Shown in pieces: positions 10,799 to 38,599 of a stretch of 64,000 nucleotides of DNA. The position numbers and the translations under genes were made by a program. The DNA comes from a virus, in the IMG/VR virus record IMGVR_UViG_3300045988_111022; one strand, given 5' to 3'. Every line of letters starts with the position of its first letter. Within the stretch, counting starts at the first letter, position 1. The notes under the pieces are model-generated. The model was not told where the DNA came from. It saw only the letters and a list, made by a program, of their open reading frames with translations, and ran no database searches.

Positions 10799-11750
10799 AG
10801 CAGTACAGCCGAAGAAATTGTACTTCTCTCAGGCAATGCAGACCGAGAAATACAAGAAACTCATAAATAATACCCTAGGCGATCCGGTACGCGCGGCACG
10901 ATTCGCTGCAAATATCACTTCTGCTGTGGCAGTTAACCCTACCTTGCAGGAGTGTGATGCAGGTACTATTTTGGCGGGTGCCCTTTTGGGTGAAAGCCTG
11001 CTCTTGCAGCCTTCCCCGCAGTTGGGCCAGTTCTACTTGGTGCCGTTCGAATCCAAAGCAAAACGTGACCGGCAGGGTAATGTGATTAAGCCGGCGTGTC
11101 TCAAGGCGCAATTCGTTTTGGGTTACAAGGGATACATCCAGTTGGCTCTGAGAACGGGCCAGTACAAGCGCCTGAATGTTCTGGAAGTCAAATCCGGGGA
11201 ACTGGGCGGTTGGGATCCCTTTGAAGAGCGTTTCCATGAAATGCACTTCATCGAAGATTTTGAAAAGCGTGCAGCAATGCCGACTGTGGGCTACATTGCC
11301 CATTTTGAGTATATCAATGGTTTCCAGAAAACGCTGTACTGGACGGCAGACCAGATGATGTCTCATGCGGACAAATATTCCCCGGCATTCAGCGCCGCCG
11401 CATATAAGAAGCTGCTGAATGGTGAGATTCCGCAGAATGAGTTGTGGAAGTATTCGAGCTTCTGGTACAAAGACTTCGACGGGATGGCCAAAAAGACCAT
11501 GCTGCGCCAGTTGATTTCCAAGTGGGGCATTATGACGGCAGAAATGACGATGGCCTATGAAAGAGACGGCCATGTGATGATGCCGGACACCGCGAGCGGA
11601 GACCTGTTGCCGGAAGTGACCGATACCCCGGAACTCAGCCAGCAGGATGAGCAGGAACAGCCCAAAATCGAGCGGACGGCCAAAACTATGGACTTGCCGG
11701 AGCCGGAAGCAGACGAAGTGAAAGCGGCTGTTGATTTGGCGACACTCTGA
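10791..11750 (+). CDS. recT: RecT-family single-strand annealing recombinase
   Basis: ...AANITSAVAVNPTLQECDAGTILAGALLGESLLLQPSPQLGQFYLVPF...FVLGYKGYIQLALRTGQYK are typical RecT core motifs. Confidence 0.85.
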   Translation: MAKAVQPKKLYFSQAMQTEKYKKLINNTLGDPVRAARFAANITSAVAVNPTLQECDAGTILAGALLGESLLLQPSPQLGQFYLVPFESKAKRDRQGNVIKPACLKAQFVLGYKGYIQLALRTGQYKRLNVLEVKSGELGGWDPFEERFHEMHFIEDFEKRAAMPTVGYIAHFEYINGFQKTLYWTADQMMSHADKYSPAFSAAAYKKLLNGEIPQNELWKYSSFWYKDFDGMAKKTMLRQLISKWGIMTAEMTMAYERDGHVMMPDTASGDLLPEVTDTPELSQQDEQEQPKIERTAKTMDLPEPEADEVKAAVDLATL

Positions 11751-13791: not shown

Positions 13792-14736
13792 ATGGGAAGC
13801 GATATTCGCCATGTCCGCGGCGAGGCCCAGAAAGAGCTTGTGAAGAAGTTTGAAGTATTTACAAGCAAGGGGCGATCAAGGTGGCAGGTTTGGAGCGATT
13901 GGATTACGATAAGCGCCATCGCCGTGTCCAATGCGACGGACAAGAACCACTTCGATGAACGAGAGCGGCAGTACATGACTATCGTGAAAAAGTACACGAA
14001 GCAGGAAACAGATACGTTCGCAGATATGCTTTCGCTTCTGGTTATGGCGCTGGAGGATGACCCGGAACAGGATTTCCTTGGCGAGTTGTATATGCGCTTG
14101 GGGCTTGGAAATGACCATGCAGGCCAATTCTTTACGCCCTACCACCTGTGCGAGTTTACGTCAGCAGTAACGACCCCTGCGGAAGAGTTTCAGCAGAAAA
14201 TCGGAGACAGGGGATGGGTTGCAGTCTGTGATCCGACCTGCGGCGCTGGGGCCTTGCTGGTGGCGTTCGCAAACAAATGCAGAAAGAAAGGCATCAATTA
14301 TCAGACGGATGTGCTGTTTGTGGCGCAGGACATTGACTACATCGTGGGTATGATGTGCTATCTGCAAATGAGTCTGCTTGGAATGCCGGGATACGTCGTC
14401 ATCGGTGATACGCTTGCAAGCCCGTCTACGTCTTATGACAAAAGAGGGCTGATTCCAGTTGACAAAGGGAACGTCTGGTACACGCCGCTGCTCAGGATCC
14501 CGGTTTGGCAGTATCGAATCTTTATGGCGCAGATGGAGCTGGTCACTCAGCCGATAAAGGAAGAGCGTGCTGCGGATGCGCCAAAATCCGAACCACAGAA
14601 AGCCCTTGAAGCCACAAAAAAGAGTAAGCAACCAAAAGATACGGAAAAGCCAAAAGCCGCTAAAATGCCGCCCAAAGAGCCGGAGCAGGAACCGATATTC
14701 TCTGAGGGTAAGGGCGGGCAGTTGAGCTTTTTCTGA
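13792..14736 (+). CDS. HsdM/N6-adenine-methylase-like protein lacking the NPPY/F catalytic motif
   Basis: GQFFTP and CDPTCGAGALL (SAM motif I) are present, as is IGDTL. No NPP[YFW] or DPPY anywhere. C-terminal K/E/P-rich tail. Confidence 0.6.
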   Translation: MGSDIRHVRGEAQKELVKKFEVFTSKGRSRWQVWSDWITISAIAVSNATDKNHFDERERQYMTIVKKYTKQETDTFADMLSLLVMALEDDPEQDFLGELYMRLGLGNDHAGQFFTPYHLCEFTSAVTTPAEEFQQKIGDRGWVAVCDPTCGAGALLVAFANKCRKKGINYQTDVLFVAQDIDYIVGMMCYLQMSLLGMPGYVVIGDTLASPSTSYDKRGLIPVDKGNVWYTPLLRIPVWQYRIFMAQMELVTQPIKEERAADAPKSEPQKALEATKKSKQPKDTEKPKAAKMPPKEPEQEPIFSEGKGGQLSFF

Positions 14737-15285: not shown

Positions 15286-15824
15286 TGATTTTGGGATTCA
15301 AGGGATTCAAGCCGGGGCTGGTCGCAACGCTTGGAAACGGAAAATTCCAGTATGTTCCGAACGAGCTGAATGAGACGAAAAAGGCCATGTGCGCCAGCAC
15401 CGGGTTCCATTATTGCTTAGACCCGTGGGATTGCCTGAATTGGTACACATGGAACGGCAAGAATGAGTTTTGGGCAGTTGCGGCCGGGGGCGATGTTGAC
15501 GAGGATGGCTACGGAAGCCGGAGCAGCTGTACGAAGCTGGTTCCTCTCCGCAAGCTGACAGCAGAAGAATTTTTGCTGATGCACGCCAACTATGTGTTTG
15601 AGCATCCTGCGGAGAAGTTTGAGGACAGCTATAAAGGGCCATTTCATGTCGCATATGGCCGGGATAAGAAGCTGGCCGGAGAACTGGGAGAATGGCTCTG
15701 CTTCATCATCCAAGATCAGCAGGAGTCCATCTGCATTGCACAGCCGATTGACGGCGTGAAGATTTTGCCGGGGAAGAACTACACGGCAGAGAGCTTGGAG
15801 GCGGCACACAATGAAAAAGGCTGA
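15285..15824 (+). CDS. DUF7666-like protein
   Basis: MILGFKGFKPGLVATLGNGKFQYVPNE...CASTGFHYCLDPWDCLNWY. TGATG overlap with the previous gene. Confidence 0.45.
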   Translation: MILGFKGFKPGLVATLGNGKFQYVPNELNETKKAMCASTGFHYCLDPWDCLNWYTWNGKNEFWAVAAGGDVDEDGYGSRSSCTKLVPLRKLTAEEFLLMHANYVFEHPAEKFEDSYKGPFHVAYGRDKKLAGELGEWLCFIIQDQQESICIAQPIDGVKILPGKNYTAESLEAAHNEKG

Positions 15825-18006
15825 AGAATTGAAACTTTATGCGCCGGAACCGAAACGGCCAGAGCTGGATGCGGCACTGTGTATGTCAGTTGCCGAGGGG
15901 CAGGGCATGGGCCGCTACATCGAGGGAAAGGTGCTGACGGTGGCCGTCTGGGACAAAAAGGAAAAGCCGCTGGTCGTGTGGCGCTTTTTCGGGGATTACT
16001 GGACGGGGGAGCTTCGCGGGAACGAGAACCCGACTAAAGGCGAGCTTTCGCCGCGTCAAATTGAGGTCAAGCCCTGCCAGTGCTTGACATGGAGGACCGA
16101 AGTGCCGGCCACAAAAGGAGAATCGGAGCTCCTGCAGAACTATTTTAATGACTGCAGACCGGGATATCTGATTGGCATTGTAGAAGATGCACTGTCGGCT
16201 CATGCCAGGAAGAAGCGCGAAGAGCGCAACGCACGACAGGCGGCTGAGACCAAGAAGCTCTTTGAGAATCTGCCGGAGCCGCCGGAAGATCTCAGTAAAC
16301 AAGTTTTGAAAGTGTGCAGTGATGCGGGCTTTCTCTGGGTCACCAATGATAAACAGAACGTAATCGAACCCGGCGGCGTTGAGAAGAAAATCTCGATTCA
16401 GCGGGCAAGGTGCGATAGCTGCGGTGGTGAATATACGCTGTCGGAACTGCTCAAACACAAGAGCACAGCGACGTGCGAATGTTGCGGGGAGAAAATGCAG
16501 GTTCGCAATACCCGCTATTCGGTCAAAAGGTTATGGGCCGCAAGGACATTCCTTTGGAGCAAGCCGCAGGGGGATGGAGTCTGGATTCGCCGCTATCTGG
16601 TGTATTTCGATTTCAGAAATCATCGGGCAGAACCGGAATTTCACGGCCGTGGAATCTGGTGGACGGACGGAAAGACCATCAAGCAGTGGAAACGCGACTG
16701 GGGCGAAAAAGCTCAGTATATCATGTGCCAGCGCCCGAAGCTGTCCGCGATGCTGCTGGCCCCCTCTGGCCCGTATCAGCCGTACACGCTGGCATCCCAC
16801 ACTGACCAATTTGAGAGTGATGTTCGGAAAGTGTTGAAATCTGAATGGATGTACCAGTACGATAATCACCTCAATTTTCCGTGGGAAGTTCGGCAGTGGG
16901 AAATCGTGAATCGGTATCCGATGGCCGAAAGCCTTGTAAAAACGGGCTGGGCTGATGCGCTGTGCTCTCAGGTGTACGACGAATATGAACACAGCACCCG
17001 CATCAATCTTCGAGCAAAGACCTATTACGACGTGTTTGGCTTAAATCGTCAGGAGCTGGCTGTGGTCGCACAAAGCAAAAAGTCGTTCCGCGAGGTGGAT
17101 GATGCGTTGAAGTGGAAAGAAGCCGGCCTTGCAATCAATGACAAGAACATGAAGATGACGGCTAACATCCGAAATCTCTCAGGAATGGCCAAGACATTGC
17201 GGGAAAGCGGAATGACACGGAGCTTGAAATATCTACGCCAGCAGACAAGGCGAGTCACCGGAAGCTACAACGGTCAGATTGCTCTTCAAGTTGCATCGGT
17301 CTGGTTGGATTATATCGATATGGCCGGGCAGATGAAGATGAACTTGAATCTTGAAAAGGTTCGTTTTCCGCTGGATCTCAAGCGTCGCCACGATGATTTG
17401 GTTCTGGAGCGAAATAAGCAATGTCGAAAGGACGCCTTGAGAGGTGCCGCAAGCAGCATCAAAAAGGAAGCCAAGGAGCTGGAAAATCAGTTCCACATCG
17501 AGAACATCTACAAGAAAATCCGCAAAATCTACGAGTACGATGGAGCGGAATACATCATTCGGGTGCCGGATGGGGCAAAGGCCATTTTGGAAGAAAGCAG
17601 GTTTCTTGACCACTGCATCCAGCGCGGAACTAGGTACTTTGAGCGTATTGCCAAACGTGAGAGCTACATCTTCTTCATGCGGCGCAAGGCTGACCCGAAT
17701 ACCCCGTGGTATACCTTGGAGGTGGAGCCGGGCGGCACTGTCCGCCAAAAGCGCAGCTATAACAACGACCAGTACGCCGATTTGGAGGATGCGAAACCGT
17801 TTATTGCGGAATGGCAACAGGTCGTGCAGGGCCGCATGACAACGGCGGAAATTGATTTTGCACGGCAGTCCAAGGAAATCCGCGCACAGGAGTTTGCGGA
17901 ACTCAAGGAGAACGGAAACATTATCCGCACGGGTACGAATGCTGGCAAGCTGCTGGTTGACGAACTGATGCACGACTTGATGGAGGTGGAAAAGCGTGTC
18001 GGCTAA
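15811..18006 (+). CDS. PcfJ-like protein (731 aa)
   Basis: C-terminal LEESRFLDHCIQRGTRYFERIAKRESYIFFMRRKADPNTPWYTLEVEPGGTVRQKRSYNND matches the PcfJ-domain pattern. Internal CDSCGG...CECCG zinc ribbon. Confidence 0.6.
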   Translation: MKKAEELKLYAPEPKRPELDAALCMSVAEGQGMGRYIEGKVLTVAVWDKKEKPLVVWRFFGDYWTGELRGNENPTKGELSPRQIEVKPCQCLTWRTEVPATKGESELLQNYFNDCRPGYLIGIVEDALSAHARKKREERNARQAAETKKLFENLPEPPEDLSKQVLKVCSDAGFLWVTNDKQNVIEPGGVEKKISIQRARCDSCGGEYTLSELLKHKSTATCECCGEKMQVRNTRYSVKRLWAARTFLWSKPQGDGVWIRRYLVYFDFRNHRAEPEFHGRGIWWTDGKTIKQWKRDWGEKAQYIMCQRPKLSAMLLAPSGPYQPYTLASHTDQFESDVRKVLKSEWMYQYDNHLNFPWEVRQWEIVNRYPMAESLVKTGWADALCSQVYDEYEHSTRINLRAKTYYDVFGLNRQELAVVAQSKKSFREVDDALKWKEAGLAINDKNMKMTANIRNLSGMAKTLRESGMTRSLKYLRQQTRRVTGSYNGQIALQVASVWLDYIDMAGQMKMNLNLEKVRFPLDLKRRHDDLVLERNKQCRKDALRGAASSIKKEAKELENQFHIENIYKKIRKIYEYDGAEYIIRVPDGAKAILEESRFLDHCIQRGTRYFERIAKRESYIFFMRRKADPNTPWYTLEVEPGGTVRQKRSYNNDQYADLEDAKPFIAEWQQVVQGRMTTAEIDFARQSKEIRAQEFAELKENGNIIRTGTNAGKLLVDELMHDLMEVEKRVG

Positions 18007-18190: not shown

Positions 18191-18383
18191 CACCCGGAAG
18201 AATCACAACCCCAGCGGCGCGCCGGATCCTACACGGGTTCGGGCAGAGAGCAACATCCAGAGGGAAGAAGCTCGTGTGAGCGAGCTTGTTCACGTTCTGC
18301 GTTATGTGGCAGGTGCCGCCGGGTTTGAAATTGTGGAGCGAATTGTTCTCGTGGATAACCAGACGGGGAGGATTTATCGGTGA
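18183..18383 (+). CDS. Hypothetical protein (66 aa)
   Basis: ATG at 18183 after GGAGAG. Confidence 0.5.
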   Translation: MPDTRKNHNPSGAPDPTRVRAESNIQREEARVSELVHVLRYVAGAAGFEIVERIVLVDNQTGRIYR

Positions 18384-19366
18384 ACAGAACAAAGAATGAG
18401 TTGGCCGATTATGCTTGGAATCCGGTGACAGGGTGCCTGAAAGATTGTCGGTACTGCTATGCAAGGAAAAGCGCGATACGGTTTGCAAGCGATTGGCGCC
18501 GAAATTTGGCAGAGAGACCGAAAGTTCAGCAGGTGGGAGAAAAGCTCTTTGAGCTGGATACCCCGTGGGAAACGAAAAACAAGCACTTCCTGAACAGTCC
18601 AACGGGATTTCTGCCCACGATGCACAAATACCGTTTCGACTGGCCGCAAAAGGTCAAAGTTGGCTCAAGCATTATGGTATGCACAGACGGCGATTTATTC
18701 GGGCCGTGGGTTCCTGAAGAATGGATTCTTCAGGTGTTTGCGGCGGCTGATGAAGCACCCCAGCACCAGTACATTTTTCTGACGCAGTATCCGGAACGCT
18801 ATAAGCAGCTTGTGAATCACGAGAAGCTGCCCCAAAACAAGAATTTCTGGTACGGTTCGACAGCGACGGTCAGAGAAAGCAGCGTATGGGCGAACGAACA
18901 CTATAATACGTTCGTTGCGATAGAGCCGCTCCTTGGCCCGTTTGAGGGCGACGTGACAAAAGCGTTCCAGAAGTTGAAGTGGGTCATCATCGGCGCGGAA
19001 ACAGGCCGAAATGCAGGAAAGGTCATTCCTAAAGCGGAGTGGATTAAAGACATTCTTGCGTCAGCGGATGCAACCGACACACCTGTTTTCATGCGGAGCA
19101 GCATGGAAAGCGTGGTGGGCGCTGAGAATATGCGGCGCGAGAAACCACAGCCGCTTCTTCAGAGAGTTCCCAGCGACGTGCAGAAAGAGCGTCTGTGGGA
19201 GTATTGCACGGTCTGCGGCAAGTACAGACCGATGAAAGAAATGTACGCGCTGCTCTTGCGCAGAAAACGTGGAGATAGCCCGGAGCGGGTGGCTTATATG
19301 TGCCCGGAATGCTATGAGCAGTTCAGCAGAGACAATTTTGAGAAAGGAAAAGACGATGAAGTTTGA
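18380..19366 (+). CDS. Phage Gp37/Gp68 family (DUF5131) protein
   Basis: YAWNPVTGCLKDCRYCYA N-terminal signature. C-terminal CTVCG...CPEC zinc ribbon. Confidence 0.7.
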   Translation: MNRTKNELADYAWNPVTGCLKDCRYCYARKSAIRFASDWRRNLAERPKVQQVGEKLFELDTPWETKNKHFLNSPTGFLPTMHKYRFDWPQKVKVGSSIMVCTDGDLFGPWVPEEWILQVFAAADEAPQHQYIFLTQYPERYKQLVNHEKLPQNKNFWYGSTATVRESSVWANEHYNTFVAIEPLLGPFEGDVTKAFQKLKWVIIGAETGRNAGKVIPKAEWIKDILASADATDTPVFMRSSMESVVGAENMRREKPQPLLQRVPSDVQKERLWEYCTVCGKYRPMKEMYALLLRRKRGDSPERVAYMCPECYEQFSRDNFEKGKDDEV

Positions 19367-20441
19367 ACGAAGCGAAATTGGAGCGCTGTTCTCCAAGCTC
19401 CGAACAGCAGTGCCGGAAGTTCGCGCAGTGGGCAACGATAGCACGGGAATCCTGCTGAGTGGCCCGGATGCGTTCGCAACGAATTTGGAACTGAGCATTC
19501 GGGCAGAACTTTCCAGCCCGGTTCCGCAGGGCGTCGTTATTCCACCGCGTGGAGTGGATTTTATCAGCGGAGCAGTAGCCCCTGAAATCAACATCAACGT
19601 GACAAAGAGCGGGTTGGTCATAGAGTCCGGCACGGCGCGGGCACGGTTGAGCACGACGCCGGCAGAGAATTACCCCACATTTGATGGTCCGGGAAAGGAT
19701 GCGAAGCGCTGCGTGGTGAGAGCGAACGATTTGAGCTGGGCCATCTCAAAGGTTCTATACGCTGTGTCCAAGGAGGATCGGCATCCGGCGCACAAAGGGC
19801 TGTGCTTTTCCCACAACGGCGACGATACTTTGGAAATCTGCGCCCTGGATGGGTACAGAATGGCCATCAGCCGAATCGACTGCACCGCCGATGGCGATTT
19901 CAAGTTTGTGCTTCCGGCGGCAACGGCAAAGGCGATTGATACGCTGGGCCTTGATGGGAGCGTCAGTATTGAAAGAGACCGCAAAAAGGCCGTTTTCAGT
20001 GACAACAATTTTGAGGTAAAGTCTCGCCTGATCGCAGAACCGTTTCTGGATTATAGCAAAATTGCAGCCCAAAAGAGTGGGGGAACCAGAATCGTGCTTG
20101 ACAGAAAAGAATTGCTGGGCGTTCTGGGACGCGTCAAACTTGCTCGGTCTGCAGACGCAAAGGAAAAGAGCACCTTGGTGATGGATCTGGAACCCGGCGG
20201 CACAGGTAGAGCATCGATGCGTAGCACGATTGCGCAGATGAATGAGGAGTTTTCCTTCAACGGAAAGCTGGATGAGCGCCTGCGAATCGGCTTTAATCTG
20301 GAGTTCCTGAGCGAGGCATTGAAGTCGATGGAAGGAGACGAGGTCAGCGCATGGGTGGTCGGTCCTCTATCCCCCGTAAAGCTGATTGAGCCGCAGTATG
20401 AAGCGCTGGTGCTTCCTGTCAAGGTCAAGGAGGAAGCATGA
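19356..20441 (+). CDS. dnaN: DNA polymerase III beta sliding-clamp homologue (phage-encoded)
   Basis: ~360 aa. Clamp-like pattern: ...NLELSIRAEL..., ENYPTF, LDGYRMA, FLDYSKI, IGFNLEFLSEALKSM, SPVKL. Confidence 0.7.
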   Translation: MKFERSEIGALFSKLRTAVPEVRAVGNDSTGILLSGPDAFATNLELSIRAELSSPVPQGVVIPPRGVDFISGAVAPEININVTKSGLVIESGTARARLSTTPAENYPTFDGPGKDAKRCVVRANDLSWAISKVLYAVSKEDRHPAHKGLCFSHNGDDTLEICALDGYRMAISRIDCTADGDFKFVLPAATAKAIDTLGLDGSVSIERDRKKAVFSDNNFEVKSRLIAEPFLDYSKIAAQKSGGTRIVLDRKELLGVLGRVKLARSADAKEKSTLVMDLEPGGTGRASMRSTIAQMNEEFSFNGKLDERLRIGFNLEFLSEALKSMEGDEVSAWVVGPLSPVKLIEPQYEALVLPVKVKEEA

Positions 20442-27794: not shown

Positions 27795-27873
27795 TGCCCG
27801 GAAAGGAGGCAGAAAACCGCCGCTCCCCAATTTGACCCGCAACGCCAGCGGGATAGCAAAGAAGGGAGAAAAA

Positions 27874-28461
27874 ATGAATCAGCAAGTAGTGTATCAGGAT
27901 ATTTCGCAGATCCATCCCTATGAGAACAATCCCCGGAACAACGAAGCGGCCATTGAGCCTGTTGCGCAGAGCATCAAGCGGTTTGGCTTCCGTGTCCCCA
28001 TCCTCATCGACGGAAAAGGAACTATCATCGCAGGACACACCCGCTATGAGGCCGCAAAACGGCTTGGCATGGACAAAGTGCCGTGTATTCGGGTCGATGA
28101 CCTGACGGATGAGCAAATCCGCGCATACCGCATCGCAGACAACAAGGTGGCCGAGGCTTCTTCGTGGAATGATGATGTTCTCCGCGCCGAAATGGACGCG
28201 CTGAAAGCCTTGGACGTTGATTTGACGGACACGGGTTTCAGCGAGGTGGAGCTTGATGGGCTTCTTCGGGAAGTGGAGGATGCCGACTTCGAGGAGTTCT
28301 TTACGGAACCCGTCCAACAGCCGCCCAAAGCGGCCGATGCAGAGCAGAGCGCCGAGACCCAGCAATCTACCCAACCGGAATCTTCTCAGCTCGCTGTGCC
28401 GCAGCAGAGCGGCTCTAAGCTCATCCAATGTCCGCATTGCGGAGAATGGTTTGAGACATGA
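27874..28461 (+). CDS. ParB N-terminal-domain protein with C-terminal zinc ribbon (DpdB-like role possible)
   Basis: ISQIHPYENNPRNN...VPILIDGKGTIIAGHTRYEAAKRLGMDKVPC...LTDEQIRAYRIADNK are classic ParB/Srx-fold motifs. CPHCGEW at the C-terminus. Confidence 0.75.
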   Translation: MNQQVVYQDISQIHPYENNPRNNEAAIEPVAQSIKRFGFRVPILIDGKGTIIAGHTRYEAAKRLGMDKVPCIRVDDLTDEQIRAYRIADNKVAEASSWNDDVLRAEMDALKALDVDLTDTGFSEVELDGLLREVEDADFEEFFTEPVQQPPKAADAEQSAETQQSTQPESSQLAVPQQSGSKLIQCPHCGEWFET

Positions 28462-29207
28462 GGCTATGTCTGGCAGGTACATTCCCGGCCGAGAAGATTG
28501 TGAAAGAGTACCATCCAGAATATGTTCTGGAGAGCTTCTTTTACATCCGACCATGGCAAATCGAAGAAATTCCAAAATGGAAAATGTTCCTGCTCGACAG
28601 CGGGGCATTTACTTTTATGCACGGTATAGAAGCGTCTTCAAAGCCGGTAGATTGGGATGGATACCTGAGTCGGTACATCGACTTTATCAACCGCAACAAC
28701 GTGCAGCATTTCTTCGAGCTGGATGTGGATTCCATCGTAGGTTATGACGCTGTAAAACGCATGAGAGCGCGCCTTGAAGCAGAGACAGGAAAGCAAAGCA
28801 TTCCGGTCTGGCACCGCTCCCGTGGTCTGGACGAGTTCAAGCGCCTGTGTAGGGATTATCCCTATATCGGCATCGGCGGCTTCGCAATCAAGCACATACA
28901 GCCCAGCGAGTACGGCTATATCCGTCGTTTGGTGCAGTATGCAAATTCTTGCGGGGTGCGGGTGCATGGTCTGGGGTACACCAAAAAGGATGCAGTGAGT
29001 TTCGGCTTTTACAGCGTGGACAGCACGACATGGACCACACAGGTCAATTTCGGAGGGCTGTCATACTTCAATGGCACAGAGATGGTCGTGGTCAGACCGC
29101 CCAAGGGGATGATCGGCGCAGACTATCGCCGCCGCCGGGAGTACTCGTTGAGAGAGTGGATAAAGTACCAGAAATACCTTGATACGAAAGGAAAATGGCG
29201 TGGATAA
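28458..29207 (+). CDS. dpdA: TGT-fold DNA-guanine transglycosylase-like protein (DpdA-like)
   Basis: FLLDSGAFTF aligns with the TGT DSGGFQ catalytic-Asp motif. YSVDSTTW aligns with the second Asp motif (FDCV/FDS). IGIGG barrel strand. ATGA overlap with the ParB-like gene. Confidence 0.6.
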   Translation: MRLCLAGTFPAEKIVKEYHPEYVLESFFYIRPWQIEEIPKWKMFLLDSGAFTFMHGIEASSKPVDWDGYLSRYIDFINRNNVQHFFELDVDSIVGYDAVKRMRARLEAETGKQSIPVWHRSRGLDEFKRLCRDYPYIGIGGFAIKHIQPSEYGYIRRLVQYANSCGVRVHGLGYTKKDAVSFGFYSVDSTTWTTQVNFGGLSYFNGTEMVVVRPPKGMIGADYRRRREYSLREWIKYQKYLDTKGKWRG

Positions 29208-30042
29208 AGAAATCGTCTACCGCGTCGAGGATGGCATGGACAGGGAAAAGATTCTCTGCACCACCTACCAGATGCGGAATTTTTATATGCAGTTCAGAGA
29301 CGGATTTTTCACCAATCTGGACGTTATGAACTATATCCAGCACCTCGCCGCCGCCCATATGGCGAAAAAAGGGATGAACGTGCTGGATGTGTGCTGTGGG
29401 CGCTCTCTGATGCTCCCGCTGCTGCGCTACTACGCAAAGGACATTGCATCCTACACTGGAGTGGACATCAGCAAGGCGAACATCAAGGAAGCGATGCGCG
29501 GCGCAACTGCAAAGAACCTCGAACCCAAGGATTTGGCCTCCTACTACCCGTTCCGGGTGGGCTGGAAGCTGGGCAACGTCGCAGAGATGTCTAAGGTCAT
29601 CCCGGCGGGCTTTGCCGACTTCGTGATTTACACCTCCGCCATCGAGCATATGCACCCTACGGACGGCGCAAAAAGCCTTGTAGAATGCTACAAGGTGATG
29701 AAGCCGGGTGCAAAGATGTTTCTCTCCTGTCCGAACACCCCAGGCAATGGGTATCAAACCCAGTACCGCGCTCATGTCTATGAGTGGGGCTACGATGAAC
29801 TGAAAGCCAAGCTGACCGAAATCGGATTCAGTATTGTGCAGGAGGTCGGTTTGGTCACCAGCGTCCGCGAAATGGACGAGTTCTATTCCAAACAGCCGTC
29901 GGCGCTCAAGGATTTCTATGAACGCATGAAGTCCTATGTCCCGTCTGCATTTCTCACAGCGTTTATGGCTATCCCATTCCCGCGTGAGGCGAAAGAGCTG
30001 TTGTTCATCGTCCAGAAGCCGAAAGGAGAGGAAAATGCCTAA
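29179..30042 (+). CDS. Class I SAM-dependent methyltransferase (start uncertain: 29179, 29200 or 29233)
   Basis: VLDVCCGRS motif I, then VDIS, then FVIYTSAIEHM. No DNA-MTase DPPY/NPPY or PC motif. Confidence 0.75.
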   Translation: MIRKENGVDKEIVYRVEDGMDREKILCTTYQMRNFYMQFRDGFFTNLDVMNYIQHLAAAHMAKKGMNVLDVCCGRSLMLPLLRYYAKDIASYTGVDISKANIKEAMRGATAKNLEPKDLASYYPFRVGWKLGNVAEMSKVIPAGFADFVIYTSAIEHMHPTDGAKSLVECYKVMKPGAKMFLSCPNTPGNGYQTQYRAHVYEWGYDELKAKLTEIGFSIVQEVGLVTSVREMDEFYSKQPSALKDFYERMKSYVPSAFLTAFMAIPFPREAKELLFIVQKPKGEENA

Positions 30043-30346: not shown

Positions 30347-30360
30347 GGGAGGGGCGCAAG

Positions 30361-30822
30361 ATGAAAAATACTCGTGCTCTTTGCCAGACCGCCGTTGTTG
30401 CAGCATTGTATGTGGCGCTGACCACCTTGAACCCCCTGTCGTGGGGTGCAATCCAATTCCGGGTTGCAAATATGCTCTGTGCACTCCCGTTCAAGGACAA
30501 GAAATATGCCCCGGCGGTTCTGCTGGGAATCGCAATCGCAAACGCAACCAGCCCGTTTGGGCCTGTCGATGTGGCCTTTGGTCTGATGGCTGAGGGCGTG
30601 GCGTATCTCCTTGTTGTTTGGGGGCCGTGGAAAAAGCTGGGGATTTTGTGGAAAGCTGTTATCCTCTCTTTGTCCGTGGCTCTGTTCATCGGGGTGGAGC
30701 TGTACGCAATGGTGGGAGCGCCGTTCCTGCTGACGGCCGCAGGGCTGTTCGTTGGCACTTTCTTGGCCGTGGAACTCGGCAACATGGTGATTTCTAAAAC
30801 CGCTCTTGCAAGAATCGTGTAA
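30361..30822 (+). CDS. queT: QueT queuosine-precursor transporter (ECF S-component type)
   Basis: AVVAALYVALTTLNPLSWGAIQFRVANMLCALPFKDKKYAPAVLLGIAIANATSPFGPVDVAFG closely follows the QueT signature (AALYV.LT...S.G.IQFR..E.L..L.F..KY...G..IAN..S.FG..D). Confidence 0.8.
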   Translation: MKNTRALCQTAVVAALYVALTTLNPLSWGAIQFRVANMLCALPFKDKKYAPAVLLGIAIANATSPFGPVDVAFGLMAEGVAYLLVVWGPWKKLGILWKAVILSLSVALFIGVELYAMVGAPFLLTAAGLFVGTFLAVELGNMVISKTALARIV

Positions 30823-33190: not shown

Positions 33191-35539
33191 GTGAAAAAAG
33201 TTATTCCCGGAAAAATTAAAACACAGCTGCGCCTTGACGGTTACTATAATGTGCTGAACAAGTACGGCACCCAGCACGACAGCACGGAGTACTACCAGTG
33301 GGCGTCTGGCTCTGCGGTAAGCGATACGGAGCTGGCTGATCTCTATGCAGGAAACGGGTTGTTCTCAACCATTATTGATGCCCCGGCGGACGACGCAACC
33401 AAGAACGGCATCGACCTCGGCATCAAGGACAAAGACTTGCAGAAACAGCTCGACAACCACTTGCAGACCATCCGATACCAGAGCAAATTCGCCAAGGCTT
33501 TGCGCTGGGCGCGGCTCTTTGGCGGTGCTGCTGTGGTGATGCTGGTTGACGACGGGCGGCTCCTGCAGGATCCTTTGAACTGGCGTGACGTGCACGGCGT
33601 CGAAGAGCTGTTGGTATATGGCCGCAACGAAATGTATCCTCTTTGGGTCAATGGGTATGAGAACAACCCGGACGATGAGGATTACCGCCGGGGAGGCACT
33701 GGCATCCCGGAGTACTACCAAGTCAACAGCGTGTACGGCAACTATGTTGTGCATTCGTCCAGATGCCTTGTTTTCCATAACTCGGACATCCCGGAAAGCT
33801 CCACTATGGCTAATCTCTACCGCACATGGGGCATCCCGGAGTATCTGCGCATTCGTGAAGAGCTGAGAAATGCCAGCATAGGCCCCGGCTATTCTATCCG
33901 CCTGCTGGAGCGGCTGTCGATGGTGACCTACAAGATGAAGAATCTTGCTGGTGTGCTTTCCACGGCAGACGGCGAGGATACGGTTCTTCAGCGTATGGAA
34001 ATGCTTGACCTTGCCCGTAATCTGCTGAACATGGTCATTATTGATGCCGACGGCGAGGATGTGGGCGTTCAATCCCTGTCTGTTGCTGGCGTTAAGGACA
34101 TTCTGGACAATGCCTGTGCGATGTTGTCTGCTGTATCTCATATCCCACAGACGCGGCTTTTTGGGCGTTCCCCGGCGGGCGAGAATGCCACTGGAGAGAG
34201 TGACCTTGAGAATTACAAGGAATTCGTCGGAGGTCTCCAAAACGGTGACCTCCGCGATAACACCCGTACCCTCGTTGAGCTGATTCTTCGCGGCATGGTT
34301 TGGAACAGGGAAGTCGAGGAGATACCTGAGTACACCGTGACCTACAAGAGCGCGTGGAGCCCGTCTGACGATGAAAAGGCAGCACAAGACCAAGCTGCCG
34401 CAGTGGCACAGCTCACCAGAGCGCAGACCGCTGGCACATACGTCACAAATGGAATTGTCGAAGCTGAAGAAGTTCGCCGTGCGATGGTTCGGGACGAACA
34501 GTTTGACCCGGAGAATATTCTCACGGAAGCGGACATCCACCAAGACTGGGGTCTTGGCGGAGCCGATACCCAGCAGGAAGCCGCTGATGGTCAGCAACAG
34601 AACGTCGCGGACGCAAGCGGTCTTGTTACCGATGAGGGAGACTGCGGCTATGTGGCGGGCTTTGTCGTGCAGGATGGCAAGATCCTCTGCGGGCGTCGCT
34701 CCGATGGTCAAGGCTGGTGTGGCCCCGGTGGGCATATCGAGCCGAAAGAAACGCCGGGGGTGGCCTTCCGCCGGGAAGCCAAAGAAGAGTTTGGAATTGA
34801 CGTTGGGAATATTACCTATCTTGGTAACTGCAAAGGAAAACCGGATGAAATCCTCCCTGTGCAGATATACCGCGTCAACGACTATGCAGGTATCCCGGTG
34901 TGCGATCAGGAAGAGATGTTCACCGCCACATGGTTCACCCCGGAACAGATTCTTGCCCAAGAGGTCCCCGGCGGGCTGGTGTTCGACCCATTCCGCAGGA
35001 GCGTGGAAGAATACCTCGACCAGCTGGGCCTGACGCTGGATGACTTCGACCCCAATAAGCACAAACGCGATGAGGACGGAAAGTTCTCCAGCATGGGGAA
35101 CACAACATCAAAAGATGAATCGGGCAAGGAAAATTCGTCAAAAGACTTGAATGATTCCCAAAGTCATGCTAAAATAAATTCTAACGCAGTTTCGGCAAAA
35201 GGCGCAAACGCTTTCAAAGTGAAAGGGTTTCCCAACAAGCAGAAGCTGAACAACCACTGGCAGAACGGAAGAACCCACGCCGCTGAGTACGCTCCCGATG
35301 GCATTACAACAAAGGAGCAGTACGAAAAGCGGGCGGTTCAACTTCTGGAAAGCCCCTGTGGGAACGGTATCAAGGGCTATAAGACAAAAGATGGCCTTAT
35401 ATGCCGATACGATACGAAGAAAAATGACTTTGCGAAAGGTTCCCCGGAGAAAGGCGTAAGAACGATGTTCAAGCCCGATGATGGGGAAGAGTATTATAGA
35501 CGCCGACTTGAGGCCGAGGGAATAGAGAACGATGAATGA
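33191..35539 (+). CDS. Portal protein (DUF1073-type) fused to a NUDIX hydrolase domain and a C-terminal nuclease-toxin-like domain
   Basis: N-terminal ~470 aa are DUF1073 portal-like. NUDIX box GGHIEPKETPGVAFRREAKEEFGI is at nt 34727-34798. The C-terminal ~140 aa (HWQNGRTHAAEY...ICRYDTKKNDFAKG...RTMFKP) resemble BECR-type nuclease modules of polyvalent phage proteins. Confidence 0.75.
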   Translation: MKKVIPGKIKTQLRLDGYYNVLNKYGTQHDSTEYYQWASGSAVSDTELADLYAGNGLFSTIIDAPADDATKNGIDLGIKDKDLQKQLDNHLQTIRYQSKFAKALRWARLFGGAAVVMLVDDGRLLQDPLNWRDVHGVEELLVYGRNEMYPLWVNGYENNPDDEDYRRGGTGIPEYYQVNSVYGNYVVHSSRCLVFHNSDIPESSTMANLYRTWGIPEYLRIREELRNASIGPGYSIRLLERLSMVTYKMKNLAGVLSTADGEDTVLQRMEMLDLARNLLNMVIIDADGEDVGVQSLSVAGVKDILDNACAMLSAVSHIPQTRLFGRSPAGENATGESDLENYKEFVGGLQNGDLRDNTRTLVELILRGMVWNREVEEIPEYTVTYKSAWSPSDDEKAAQDQAAAVAQLTRAQTAGTYVTNGIVEAEEVRRAMVRDEQFDPENILTEADIHQDWGLGGADTQQEAADGQQQNVADASGLVTDEGDCGYVAGFVVQDGKILCGRRSDGQGWCGPGGHIEPKETPGVAFRREAKEEFGIDVGNITYLGNCKGKPDEILPVQIYRVNDYAGIPVCDQEEMFTATWFTPEQILAQEVPGGLVFDPFRRSVEEYLDQLGLTLDDFDPNKHKRDEDGKFSSMGNTTSKDESGKENSSKDLNDSQSHAKINSNAVSAKGANAFKVKGFPNKQKLNNHWQNGRTHAAEYAPDGITTKEQYEKRAVQLLESPCGNGIKGYKTKDGLICRYDTKKNDFAKGSPEKGVRTMFKPDDGEEYYRRRLEAEGIENDE

Positions 35540-35729
35540 CGAAACCATTTGCCCGCTGTGTGGGCAGCATCACTTTGAAGAGAACGACGATTTTGAGGAA
35601 TGCCCTGTGTGCGGTTGGGTGAATGACGGCGTACAGCGCGCAGATCCCGATTATCGCGGCGGGTATAACCGCATCAGCCTGAACGAAGCAAAAAAGAAAT
35701 TTGCCGCAGGCAAAAAGGTGTTTGATTAA
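35532..35729 (+). CDS. CPCC-family cysteine-rich protein
   Basis: ICPLCGQHHFEENDDFEECPVCGWVNDGVQRADPDYRGGYNRISLNEAKKKF. Confidence 0.7.
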   Translation: MNDETICPLCGQHHFEENDDFEECPVCGWVNDGVQRADPDYRGGYNRISLNEAKKKFAAGKKVFD

Positions 35730-35743
35730 CAATAACGGCGTTG

Positions 35744-35792
35744 AGAGCCTTTGCAGGTGACGCGAGAGCGTCCTTTGCGAAGGCTCTTTTTG
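35744..35792 (+). terminator. Terminator-like hairpin
   Basis: AGAGCCTTTGC (35744-35754) / GCGAAGGCTCT (35777-35787), 1 mismatch, followed by TTTTT. Confidence 0.5.
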
Positions 35793-35795
35793 TTT

Positions 35796-35871
35796 GCAGT
35801 CATAGCTCAGTTGGTAGAGCGCCTGCCCTCCAAGCAGGATGCCGCGGGTTCGAGCCCCGTTGACTGCTCCA
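35796..35871 (+). tRNA. tRNA, probable Gly (anticodon UCC) with C at position 33
   Basis: Hand-folded cloverleaf: acceptor GCAGTCA/TGACTGC, D arm GCTC-AGTTGGTA-GAGC, anticodon arm CCTGC-CCTCCAA-GCAGG, T arm GCGGG-TTCGAGC-CCCGT. CCA is encoded. Confidence 0.75.
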
Positions 35872-35874
35872 TAT

Positions 35875-35947
35875 CGAGGGTTGGCCAAGTTGGATAAGGC
35901 ATGGGCCTTTGACTCCCAGACCGCCGGTTCGAGTCCGGTACCCTCGA
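35875..35947 (+). tRNA. tRNA-Gln (anticodon UUG)
   Basis: Acceptor CGAGGGT/ACCCTCG, D arm GCC-AAGTTGGATAA-GGC (Gln-like), anticodon loop CTTTGAC, T arm GCCGG-TTCGAGT-CCGGT. No encoded CCA. C31-U39 mismatch. Confidence 0.7.
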
Positions 35948-35952
35948 CTTAT

Positions 35953-36029
35953 GCTGGTGTAGCTCAGTTGGACAGAGCAGTTGATTTGTAATCTTCAGGT
36001 CGTGGGTTCAAATCCCATCCCCAGCTCCA
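35953..36029 (+). tRNA. tRNA-Thr-like (anticodon UGU) with weakened stems
   Basis: Acceptor GCTGGTG/CCCCAGC (one U-C mismatch). Anticodon arm GTTGA-TTTGTAA-TCTTC (two U-U mismatches). T arm GTGGG-TTCAAAT-CCCAT. CCA is encoded. Confidence 0.55.
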
Positions 36030-36267: not shown

Positions 36268-36311
36268 GATGCCGGCAGAGGGAAGATTCCCGGAAAGATA
36301 AAGAGGTGTTT

Positions 36312-37232
36312 ATGCCAGTGAGAAACAACGGCCCCGGCGAATACAGTCGGGCTTCTACGACAAGAAAATCAAAGGTCGAGCCGGAATACCCGCAATGGGC
36401 AGAAAGTAAGATGCGAGCCATTGAGAACAGGCGCTTAAAAGAGCTTCAAGCTGTGGTGCGCGATTCAATGCCTGAGATACTGGCCATCGCTGCGGATGAA
36501 ATGGATACGGCTTCTGAAAGCATCAGAAAAGATGGATACAGCGACATGGTGCGCCGCATCCAGAACAGGTTCCGCATTATGCGTGATCGGCTCAGTCGGC
36601 GGCTGAAAACCGACCCGTTGGAACGTGATGTCCGCCGCTGTGCGGATTATACAGACCGCCGCCAGCTCCAAGAATGGCAACGCAGTGTCCGGGCCACACT
36701 CGGCATCGACATCAGCAAGGACTTCTTCATTGGTGAGCGGTATGAGCAGATGCTTTCAAGGTGGGTGGAGCAAAATGTTTCTTTCATAACCAGCATCGAG
36801 AGCGATTGCTTTGATGATATGGAGAAAATCATTATTGACGGCTTTACAAAGGGCCGAACACCCGCCGCAATTTCAAATGAGATACAGCGGCGCTTCGATG
36901 TGACCAAATCGAAAGCGAACCTTTTGGCTCGCGACCAGATTGGAACATTGAGCGCAGACCTGACTCGTACTCGACAGGAGTCCGCCGGGGTAAAGGAGTA
37001 CATCTGGCGTTCGTCCGGCGACGAACGTGTGCGCGCGTGCCATCGTGAACTTGATGGTAAGACGTTTCGTTATGATGACCCGCCAGCAATGTGGTACATG
37101 ACGAAGCGAGGGAAAATCTACACCGGGAGACACTGCAACCCCGGCGAGGATTACCAGTGCCGCTGTGTTGCAAAACCCGTTTTTGACTTTAATAGGCTCA
37201 ATTCTCAAGCCTTTAAGGAGAAGAAACAATGA
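36312..37232 (+). CDS. Minor head protein (Mu F / SPP1 gp7 family)
   Basis: ...KANLLARDQIGTLSADLTRTRQESAGVKEYIWRSSGDERVRACHRELDGKTF...HCNPGEDYQCRC is the typical Phage_Mu_F C-terminal core. Confidence 0.8.
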   Translation: MPVRNNGPGEYSRASTTRKSKVEPEYPQWAESKMRAIENRRLKELQAVVRDSMPEILAIAADEMDTASESIRKDGYSDMVRRIQNRFRIMRDRLSRRLKTDPLERDVRRCADYTDRRQLQEWQRSVRATLGIDISKDFFIGERYEQMLSRWVEQNVSFITSIESDCFDDMEKIIIDGFTKGRTPAAISNEIQRRFDVTKSKANLLARDQIGTLSADLTRTRQESAGVKEYIWRSSGDERVRACHRELDGKTFRYDDPPAMWYMTKRGKIYTGRHCNPGEDYQCRCVAKPVFDFNRLNSQAFKEKKQ

Positions 37233-38599
37233 ATCAGAAAAATCCGCCGCAAGTCCTTCGGAGCGAAATGCGTGCTGACAGCGTGCCTGTCGATGAGCAT
37301 TACAGCACCGAGGGATATTTTTATGATAACCCCATCCTGACCCGCACCGGCATCTTCAAGTACAAGCTGGAAGATGGTTCGGAACGTCGAGAACTGCGCA
37401 GGCCGGAAGATGTGTTTGACCCGGCGAGCCTTGCAAGCTATGAGGGAAAGCCCATCATCATTACCCACGATGCGCAGGTGATAGACAAAGACAATGCCCG
37501 CCGGGAGAGAGTGGGAACAATCCTGACTCCCGGACAGCAGGAAGGCGAGACCGTCCGTGCCAAAATCGTCATTGACGACCCCGATGCTGTAAAGGCGTCG
37601 GGCCTGCGCGAGCTGTCCGTTGGATATTATCAGGATCTTATCATGGAACCCGGAGAGTGGGAGGGAGAGCCTTACGATGCAATCCAGACCCACATCCGCG
37701 TGAATCATCTTGCGCTGGTTGCCGTCGCCCGCGCCGGAGATGATGCAAGACTGAATATGGACGGCCAAGACAATGGAGGTACTGACCCTATGGATGACGA
37801 GAACAAGAAGACCTGCACCACCATGGACGACGATACTACCGTGGAACCCGATAAGCAGACTGCGGATGATGGCGAAGGCGCTTCCCCTGCGACTTCGTCC
37901 CTTGACCCTGCCGGCATCGAGGCGGCTATCAAGGCATATCTGGCCGCTACTGGCGGTGCAACTGCTGACGATGAGAACGACCCGGCGGCGGGTGGTGACC
38001 CCACCAAGCCGACTGAGGACGATGGTGAAGATGATGCCACCACACCCGACGTTCTGGCGGACATTACGGCCCGCCGGGATGCAATGGAGGATGGTCCCGC
38101 AAAGTCCGACATCAACACCCTGCTGTCTATGCTGGAGGCTGAGAAAGCCCGTGCGGATGCCGCTGAAGACGATGTCAAACAGCCGCCCACAGAAGATGAG
38201 GACGACGCCTCTGACAATGACAGAGGCCAGCTGAACCATGACAGTCTCGACGCCATCGTCAAGAAGAAGGTCGACCAGCGCATGGAGCTGTGCCGTCTGG
38301 GCGACAAACTGCATCTGGATGGCATGTACACCCTGCCTGTGATGCAGGCAAAGAAAAAGGTCATCAGAACTGTTCTGCCCGGTATGCGTCTGGACGGGAA
38401 AGGCGACGCATACATCAACGCAGCTTTTGACATTGCCAAGGGCAAGGTCGATGGCCGCAAGACCGTGAACGATCAGCGTCGGCAGGTGTTCAATGCGGAT
38501 TCCGCAAATGCGGCGACCCGTAACGCGGGTGCCAAGAACGACCCCGACACCGCTCGTACCCGCATGATCCAGCGTCACGCTGGCGAAAAGGAGGACTAA
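37229..38599 (+). CDS. DUF2213-type prohead scaffold/protease-like protein
   Basis: N-terminus TRTGIFKYKLEDGSERRELRRPEDVFDPASLASYEGKPIIITH...ELSVGY...VNHLALV. Acidic low-complexity centre. Confidence 0.7.
   Translation: MNQKNPPQVLRSEMRADSVPVDEHYSTEGYFYDNPILTRTGIFKYKLEDGSERRELRRPEDVFDPASLASYEGKPIIITHDAQVIDKDNARRERVGTILTPGQQEGETVRAKIVIDDPDAVKASGLRELSVGYYQDLIMEPGEWEGEPYDAIQTHIRVNHLALVAVARAGDDARLNMDGQDNGGTDPMDDENKKTCTTMDDDTTVEPDKQTADDGEGASPATSSLDPAGIEAAIKAYLAATGGATADDENDPAAGGDPTKPTEDDGEDDATTPDVLADITARRDAMEDGPAKSDINTLLSMLEAEKARADAAEDDVKQPPTEDEDDASDNDRGQLNHDSLDAIVKKKVDQRMELCRLGDKLHLDGMYTLPVMQAKKKVIRTVLPGMRLDGKGDAYINAAFDIAKGKVDGRKTVNDQRRQVFNADSANAATRNAGAKNDPDTARTRMIQRHAGEKED

Follow-up and report, generated by a model that had tools for sequence, protein, structure and literature searches.

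A temperate phage of Faecalibacterium prausnitzii probably carries a polymorphic toxin-immunity system, together with a NUDIX effector domain, on its portal protein. The locus lies in IMG/VR virus record IMGVR_UViG_3300045988_111022, a stretch of 64,000 nucleotides (nt) that we refer to as the window. Here, a single open reading frame (ORF) of 782 amino acids (aa) joins a portal domain to a NUDIX domain and to a C-terminal domain, TOX, that resembles colicin D and the C-terminal toxin (CdiA-CT) of a contact-dependent growth inhibition (CDI) system. TOX is followed by a small gene of the Cys_rich_CPCC family (hereafter CPCC), the predicted immunity gene. The features of the locus are as follows, with dN/dS denoting the ratio of non-synonymous to synonymous substitution rates between two clades of the protein, and pLDDT the predicted local distance difference test score of AlphaFold2.

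33191-35539, + strand: portal, NUDIX and colicin-D-like toxin domain in one ORF of 782 aa, with a GTG start
33191-34525, + strand: portal domain, aa 1-445 (PF06381, solved portals, AlphaFold2 folded block, dN/dS 0.04-0.056)
34526-34636, + strand: linker 1, aa 446-482, predicted disordered (pLDDT <50)
34637-35041, + strand: NUDIX domain, aa 483-617 (PF00293, Nudix box at 34727-34798, dN/dS 0.07-0.11)
35042-35185, + strand: linker 2, aa 618-665, with the motif HKRDEDGKF at 35060-35086 (pLDDT <50)
35186-35536, + strand: TOX domain, aa 666-782 (117 aa), a BECR-fold, colicin-D/CdiA-CT-like predicted RNase (profile, AlphaFold2, Foldseek)
35532-35729, + strand: 65-aa Cys_rich_CPCC zinc-ribbon gene, predicted cognate immunity protein (PF14206, E 7e-16)
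35093-35782, + strand: swappable toxin-immunity cassette, comprising the rest of linker 2, TOX and CPCC (blastn against locus L095)

The C-terminal domain, its partner gene and their exchange

Judged by its profile and its structural model, TOX is a real, conserved domain. The profile recovers 1080 representative clusters at E<=1e-3 among 1.84 billion, and among the matches listed the domain sits at the C-terminal end. In the PDB it matches one chain, 8ey4_A (E 1.8e-6), an 88-residue toxin from the entry 'contact-dependent growth inhibition toxin-immunity protein complex from E. coli O32:H37'. In the AlphaFold2 model of TOX (pLDDT 84, predicted template modelling score 0.78), three helices are followed by a four-stranded antiparallel sheet and then by a C-terminal helix. 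Foldseek searches of the PDB with this model return 8ey4_A first (E 1e-4, template modelling (TM) score 0.83 on the target, root-mean-square deviation 1.8 Å), followed by colicin D tRNase entries only (1tfo, 1v74 and 5znm, probability 0.90-0.95). The modelled order, a helical N-terminal part and then a four-stranded antiparallel sheet, is that of the BECR/Tox-Colicin D fold. Iyer et al. (2017, PMC5512222) describe the general BECR configuration as having its His among the helices and its Ser/Thr in strand 4.

Residue conservation points in the same direction. H689, R694, H696, E699, R739, Y740, K761 and P762 are invariant in the TOX family alignment, T758 is kept in at least 90% of members, and N688, W690 and Y711 are also invariant or nearly so. 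The Tox-Colicin D signature tabulated by Zhang et al. (2012, PMC3482391) consists of [KH]K, Hxx[ED], [ST] and [TS]xxK. H696-A-A-E699 and T758-M-F-K761 fit its Hxx[ED] and [TS]xxK elements, as matched by inspection and not by superposition of active sites. The two motifs also agree with the BECR arrangement of His and Ser/Thr given by Iyer et al. (2017).

TOX alone has no Pfam or NCBIfam match, even at E<=10, and it belongs neither to the Colicin_D profile (no Pfam match at E<=10) nor to a pair with ImmD-type immunity, its partner being CPCC (PF14206). Across 43 members of the TOX family, none matches any PBECR model (Pfam PBECR1-5) at E<=1, and neither Pfam nor NCBIfam gives any other match; the domain therefore lies outside the Pfam PBECR families. 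The toxin fragment of 8ey4 itself has no Pfam family either. An initial annotation, made from the letters of the window and their ORFs, had likened the C-terminus to BECR-type toxins and had staked this on a profile match for the module. Pfam provides no such match and the PDB does, through 8ey4_A: the resemblance holds for fold and motifs, to both 8ey4_A and colicin D, and fails for the Pfam PBECR families.

That annotation rightly saw a toxin-like C-terminus, and overlooked both the downstream immunity gene and the swapping of the cassette. The ATG of the CPCC gene overlaps the portal stop codon by 8 nt. Against PDB sequences, its product matches 8ey4_I and 8ey3_A (E 2.4e-15), the immunity chain of the CDI toxin-immunity complex. 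Since TOX resembles 8ey4_A and CPCC resembles 8ey4_I, both partners of the solved pair have homologues here, and these are adjacent and translationally coupled. With both partners homologous and encoded side by side, the pair falls within the CdiA-CT(O32:H37)/CPCC toxin-immunity family. A CPCC ORF overlaps the end of TOX in 10/10 genome loci with available downstream sequence, a MuF-TOX protein is followed by a CPCC-like ORF in Streptococcus phages, and the metagenomic protein P0066 is a natural TOX-CPCC fusion. The family is recorded as PF14206 and as phrog_6332 'unknown function', and our literature search found no paper tying Cys_rich_CPCC to CdiA immunity.

Toxin and downstream gene are exchanged together. 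When the window is compared with L095 by blastn, homology stops at 35092 and restarts at 35783, and 35093-35782 is therefore an exchangeable cassette. Two relatives, P0116 and P0121, are 96-98% identical over aa 1-633 and then continue into an unrelated C-terminus of ~125 aa. In L092-L095 an acidic ORF of 84-85 aa replaces CPCC behind the unrelated C-terminus; neither this alternative C-terminus nor its downstream ORFs have Pfam matches. A third C-terminal type (P0210, P0225; L103) has a different ORF of 78 aa downstream, and a diverged TOX subtype, like that of phage FP_Brigit, occurs on P0115, P0212, P0213 and P0222. The C-terminus of P0210 and P0225 contains the motif 'HAAYRMNERGFS' and looks DUF4258/BrnT-like by eye. 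In relatives that consist of portal and NUDIX only, there is no small ORF and MuF follows the portal directly. Across the whole-protein search, portal plus NUDIX forms a lineage core conserved down to ~36% identity, with variable C-termini. Thus, a constant carrier bears a variable C-terminus that is swapped together with its downstream ORF. A small downstream ORF specific to each toxin type, and none behind the form without toxin, is the defining pattern of polymorphic toxin systems.

The left breakpoint of the cassette falls immediately after HKRDEDGKF, the junction at which the lesions of split variants (see below) are also found. This motif occurs once in the window, and variants of it precede the toxin domain on many other carriers. 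Three pre-toxin motifs recur across carriers: HxRDxxG[KRQ]F, W[IK]TxNGxH[IV]xI and GSGNxGHxGRPGxxGGS (P0010, P0178, P0205, P0194-P0204 and others). Such motifs may be recombination landmarks or processing sites.

Portal, NUDIX domain and integrity of the fusion

The carrier is a portal protein, as the initial annotation had proposed for the N-terminal part of a single 782-aa ORF, then under the name DUF1073. Its GTG start lies 6 nt 3′ of a ribosome-binding site, AAGGAG. Phage_portal_3 (PF06381, formerly DUF1073) matches aa 47-402 with E 2.2e-69 and 234 bits against a cut-off of 33.8, and aa 43-431 match the solved portals 8hds (Pam3), 9jlf, 9l01 and 7kln (E 5e-18 to 7e-11). This score, above the Pfam gathering threshold, together with a terminase-portal-MuF-protease-capsid gene neighbourhood, identifies the protein as a portal. 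The family phrog_15528 'portal protein' spans the whole ORF (query 2-782 against profile 20-794 of 794). The full architecture is thus already present in phage databases, labelled as portal only.

A full-length AlphaFold2 model built with 45 homologues has confident blocks at ~aa 40-445, 483-617 and 666-780. The initial annotation had asked whether the extra domains are flexibly tethered. In the model they are, with pLDDT below 50 in both linkers (aa 446-482 and 618-665). Linker 1 shows 40-60% aa identity to the 85% clade, with insertions and deletions.

The NUDIX domain is, by motif, catalytically intact. PF00293 covers aa 489-589 (E 1.3e-16; 61 bits, cut-off 21.1), and the Nudix box GGHIEPKETPGVAFRREAKEEFGI at nt 34727-34798 corresponds to G513-I536. 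From G514 to I536 it fits the canonical G-x5-E-x7-R-E-U-x-E-E-x-G-U, which places the domain in the NUDIX superfamily and bears out the complete box reported in the initial annotation. All of 45 relatives, the most distant at ~38% identity, keep G514, E520, R528, E529, E532 and E533 unchanged.

Comparison with relatives does not assign the domain a substrate. The closest characterised ones are MTH1/NUDT1, RppH, NudG and MutT, with E 6.5e-9 to zebrafish and human MTH1/NUDT1, 1.5e-8 to Bdellovibrio RppH, 7e-6 to NudG and 6e-5 to NUDT12. An ADP-ribose (ADPR) pyrophosphatase (1v8i) scores E 3e-3, much weaker than MTH1 or RppH. In NCBIfam, the MutT, RppH and NudG-type matches all lie far below the curated cut-offs, and no equivalog cut-off is reached. 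Pro551, 15 residues past the Nudix box, which we take to be a feature associated with ADPR pyrophosphatases, is kept in only some of the relatives inspected by eye. Membership of the T4 NudE clade was considered, and the similarity to T4 NudE proved marginal (pairwise BLASTP E 0.016). The suggestion in the initial annotation that the domain blunts NAD, ADPR or cyclic-nucleotide signals is thus unsupported, given that its nearest relatives are of MTH1, RppH, NudG and MutT type and that ADPR pyrophosphatases are more distant. Degradation of such signals is possible, and on sequence similarity it would be no better supported than pyrophosphohydrolysis of RNA 5′ ends or of nucleotides.

Could the long ORF instead be an artefact of assembly or sequencing, in which a frameshift error joins two or three genes? 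The initial annotation had named this as the finding that would overturn it, and separate ORFs do occur on some contigs (L001-L004 and L050). Yet when IMG/VR was scanned without bias using the whole protein, 57 loci were recovered at full coverage, and 56 of them keep an intact single ORF of 779-782 aa. They come from many samples and form two clades, at 98-100% and 84-86% identity, so that one frame persists across ~15% sequence divergence. The exact 782-aa protein is present on 492 contigs. An isolated and sequenced phage, FP_Brigit, has the fused architecture at 38% identity. Further, the split forms are four different single lesions on an allele that is also found intact. The comparative sequence data already refute the artefact, and we give it practically no credence.

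Between the two clades, dN/dS is 0.04-0.056 for the portal, 0.07-0.11 for NUDIX, 0.048-0.055 for the C-terminal domain and 0.17 for the downstream gene. Portal, NUDIX and toxin domains are all under purifying selection. Because 56/57 loci are intact and dN/dS between clades is low, the fusion is genuine and selected.

In L001-L004 the last 148 aa form a separate ORF (P0002) that starts at Met635; these loci came from a look-up biased towards the 148-aa product, having the C-terminal 156 aa as its starting query. A DNA alignment puts a different single lesion in each of the four, always in the ~40 nt that precede Met635 (equivalent to window positions 35060-35092): a 17-nt deletion, an AAG>TAG nonsense change, a 1-nt deletion and a 4-nt duplication. 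The freed 148-aa toxin ORF has its own ATG (M635) behind a Shine-Dalgarno-like sequence, GAGGA. In the unbiased set, L050 is the sole frameshifted locus of the 57, with its shift in the linker at ~aa 656. The junction is intact in 28/28 unbiased loci of the 98%-identity clade, and the lesion-bearing allele also occurs intact. The split forms are rare, independent natural lesions, and they indicate that the portal can do without the appendage. A programmed frameshift at the linker was rejected, as the four lesions are unrelated and share no slippery site, and as the junction is intact in those 28/28 loci. It is at the cassette junction, and not at other points of the appendage, that lesions recur.

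Cluster sizes for this protein need caution. The 90%-identity cluster that holds the portal also contains a large terminase of 465/466 aa encoded just upstream. We had considered these members as portals truncated at the portal/NUDIX junction, a reading rejected when look-up identified them as that terminase. Contamination probably arose from read-through products or fused calls, an example being P0163 (792 aa; portal, AAA_19 and NUDIX matches). As the terminase shares the portal's 90% cluster, cluster sizes for the portal protein are inflated, and the count of 6415 members is set aside.

Proposed delivery, host and gene neighbourhood

Solved portals have their C-terminal crown directed towards the inside of the capsid and the packaged DNA; NUDIX-TOX appendages would therefore hang inside the head. 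We propose that, starting at the portal crown, the C-terminal extension reaches into the capsid and places up to 12 copies of NUDIX and toxin there on disordered tethers. Late in infection, while portal dodecamers assemble, the CPCC immunity protein would keep the RNase silent. The appendages might then be freed by the head maturation protease, a candidate for linker cleavage, or by ejection itself. The gene for this protease lies two genes downstream of the portal, and the linkers are predicted to be disordered. Freed NUDIX and TOX would enter the next host with the phage DNA; that the domains could be cleaved off or injected was also a suggestion of the initial annotation. Colicin D cuts the anticodon loops of tRNA-Arg. 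By analogy, the RNase would cut a specific RNA in the recipient, most likely a tRNA anticodon loop, and would thereby arrest or reprogramme translation in cells without matching immunity, while the NUDIX domain would hydrolyse some NDP-X substrate.

The carriers of TOX bear on this proposal. Those identified are PF06381 portals, PF04860 portals (L081, L083, L085 and L087), which belong to a family unrelated to PF06381, a DUF2213 protein (L090, where the same toxin domain is fused to it), a VG15-like protein and MuF. The repeated capture of TOX by prohead-internal proteins is the main argument for head packaging, albeit an indirect one. The term 'polyvalent head protein' in the initial annotation also suits the architecture: the portal carries two effector domains, NUDIX and TOX, and P0205 (1342 aa) adds an ADP-ribosyltransferase domain (PF03496) inserted before NUDIX. 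The same reading is proposed in the literature for portals fused to PBECR (PMC5512222) and to Nudix domains (PMC9503650).

A different role for the same pair is conceivable. Toxin and immunity protein could act only in the producing cell or lysogen, through addiction, abortive infection or superinfection exclusion, or as a bacteriocin released on lysis, and would then not be injected; the portal fusion would be a means of co-regulating or sequestering the toxin. Only a toxin that meets the cytoplasm of its own host calls for an immunity gene, the split variants yield a free 148-aa toxin ORF with its own ATG (M635) and GAGGA sequence, and competition roles are also discussed by Jamet et al. (PMC5576092). 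Nevertheless, TOX recurs on head-internal proteins (two portal families, protease and MuF) and never on secretion or receptor-binding domains; the locus belongs to the late structural operon; 56/57 loci retain the fusion; and there is no translocation domain for uptake from outside. We therefore regard this role, in either form, as unlikely.

It is more improbable still that the C-terminal domains remain on the portal and help to package or retain DNA, in the manner of the P22 portal barrel, with vestigial enzyme features. Portal C-termini do face the packaged DNA, and binding of nucleic acid is conceivable for a NUDIX or RNase fold. Nonetheless, the Nudix-box glutamates, H-x-x-E, T-x-x-K and a dedicated immunity gene are all conserved, and close relatives with the same capsid module have exchanged the C-terminus for unrelated domains or lack it altogether. 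Two kinds of natural variant, the portal+NUDIX-only relatives and the split forms, already speak against such a role.

Several observations weigh against our proposal of a portal-carried toxin. No Pfam toxin family (PBECR, Colicin_D) matches TOX, and we found no publication for its homologue 8ey4. The CPCC immunity gene sits in the late operon, and a scan for an internal promoter of the toxin or immunity gene gave one consensus match against 1.1 expected by chance; with a late operon and a promoter scan at chance level, protection of a lysogen is unsupported. In rare natural variants the toxin is split off from its portal, and the fusion is therefore dispensable. Finally, virion presence, cleavage and capsid exit of the extra domains are what we infer, and a portal normally stays in the capsid.

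Host assignment follows from chromosomal copies. A 99% copy lies in a complete chromosome, that of F. prausnitzii strain 2 (L078, NZ_CP186691.1, 2344754-2353100), and metagenome-assembled genomes of Faecalibacterium hold copies at 84-87% identity; the phage is therefore a temperate phage of F. prausnitzii. The L078 copy is frameshifted inside the portal domain, at ~aa 422-434, and represents either a decaying prophage or a sequencing error.

The other recognised genes discussed here are these:

10791-11750: RecT, early/replication region
13792-14736: N6 DNA methylase, early/replication region
15811-18006: PcfJ-like protein, early/replication region
18380-19366: DUF5131, early/replication region
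19269-20441: DnaN-like sliding clamp, early/replication region
27832-28461: ParB N-terminal-domain protein, early/replication region
28458-29207: DpdA-like 'queuine tRNA-ribosyltransferase' (phrog_887, E 3e-58; no Pfam match)
29179-30042: methyltransferase, between the DpdA-like gene and QueT
30358-30822: QueT transporter (PF06177 in relatives' gene tables)
35796-36029: three tRNA genes, Gly-TCC, Gln-TTG and Thr-TGT, directly after the cassette
36306-37232, + strand: MuF-like minor head protein, without toxin (PF04233, E 2e-20)
37229-38599, + strand: DUF2213/head maturation protease (PF09979, E 3e-30; phrog_530 'head maturation protease', E 7e-82)

The DpdA-like gene and QueT, both a short way upstream of the terminase genes, suggest 7-deazaguanine modification of the phage DNA. 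Rfam, run over the whole window, finds the three tRNAs and nothing else. The swapped segment does not include these tRNA genes, and phages that have the alternative C-terminus keep them too; that they supply resistant replacement tRNAs against the predicted tRNase is therefore only speculation. A 565-aa antisense ORF runs through the portal gene (33365-35062, - strand), and similar long antisense ORFs lie over other + strand genes. With all recognised genes on the + strand and a positive GC skew throughout, the antisense ORFs look like by-products of composition, not genes.

We speculate, with considerable doubt, that the portal dodecamer could act as a cassette-exchangeable, 12-copy toxin launcher. 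Particles of this very abundant phage would then be strain-discriminating weapons in the human gut, cleaving tRNA in cells without the matching CPCC allele and sparing kin lysogens, and the three tRNAs might shield phage translation from the phage's own RNase.

Comparison with known systems

The individual elements of this locus are already known: PBECR fused to portal and MuF, in PMC5512222; Nudix domains on head proteins, in PMC9503650; and MuF polymorphic toxins, in PMC5576092. Packaging in the head followed by injection has been proposed for PBECR-portal, Nudix-portal and MuF toxins in these papers. New here are the combination of NUDIX and a toxin on one portal, and a portal C-terminus that behaves as a true polymorphic toxin locus with matched predicted immunity ORFs. 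Also new is the connection of an unannotated toxin family of ~1000 representative clusters, and of the CPCC family (PF14206, phrog_6332), to the apparently unpublished 8ey4 complex, which links CPCC to a predicted immunity role. The alternative cassette, the toxin-less relatives and the split variants provide natural controls for a portal-borne polymorphic toxin. Gut metagenomes very commonly contain this phage lineage, whose host, F. prausnitzii, is a dominant commensal of the human gut. If delivery proves true, it would settle the long-standing prediction that effectors fused to portal and MuF proteins are injected.

The closest parallel is the MuF toxins. Zhang et al. (2012, PMC3482391) described a 'MuF phage-capsid-like system', and Jamet et al. 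(2017, PMC5576092) described MuF polymorphic toxins of temperate phages, with immunity genes, in Firmicutes prophages, offering host takeover, a lysis-lysogeny bias and the killing of non-kin cells as options. Both the MuF toxins and the locus described here have a head-internal structural carrier, a variable C-terminal toxin and a small immunity gene directly 3′; both belong to prophages of gut Firmicutes, with delivery alongside the DNA proposed. The very same TOX+CPCC pair occurs on Streptococcus phage MuF proteins (phrog_2494). In contrast, the carrier here is a portal, at 12 copies per virion, whereas MuF is reported at 1-2 copies in SPP1; this phage's own MuF (36306-37232) is toxin-free, and a NUDIX domain lies between carrier and toxin.

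The PBECR section of Iyer et al. (2017, PMC5512222) gives fusions to MuF and portal domains as the simplest PBECR architectures. TOX and these portal fusions have in common a BECR fold with an N-terminal helix and four-stranded sheet, the helical His and the Ser/Thr of strand 4, and also the prediction of injection. It differs in having no PBECR model match at E<=10, belonging instead with the CdiA-CT/colicin-D-like family, and in having an immunity gene, none being mentioned in that section. Nudix domains fused to portal, MuF or capsid protease are read as head-packaged by Iyer et al. (2022, PMC9503650, section 3.5.2); those are T4 NudE-like, whereas the NUDIX here is only marginally so and stands nearer to the MutT/MTH1/RppH/NudG type.

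Among bacterial toxins, the CdiA-CT/CdiI pair of E. coli O32:H37 (8ey4, 8ey3) has both partners homologous to those here (toxin E 1.8e-6 and TM 0.83; immunity E 2.4e-15). Colicin D shares the fold and the Hxx[ED] and [TS]xxK motifs. Delivery here is proposed to occur through a phage portal, in place of the type V secretion filament of CdiA or the translocation domain of a colicin. For immunity there is a CPCC zinc ribbon and not ImmD, as in the colicin D system, and the pre-toxin motif is HxRDxxGxF and not VENN, as in CdiA.

A megablast search of GenBank phages with the portal gene gave no match, and the closest isolated phage, Faecalibacterium phage FP_Brigit, surfaced in the protein-level search only. 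Its portal (AUV56649, MG711465; 828 aa) is 37.6% identical over aa 14-761. As here, portal, NUDIX and a related C-terminal domain are followed by a 62-aa CPCC gene, MuF, a DUF2213 protein and the major capsid protein. Unlike here, FP_Brigit has a diverged toxin subtype and extra genes between terminase and portal, and its protein is annotated as 'portal protein' only.

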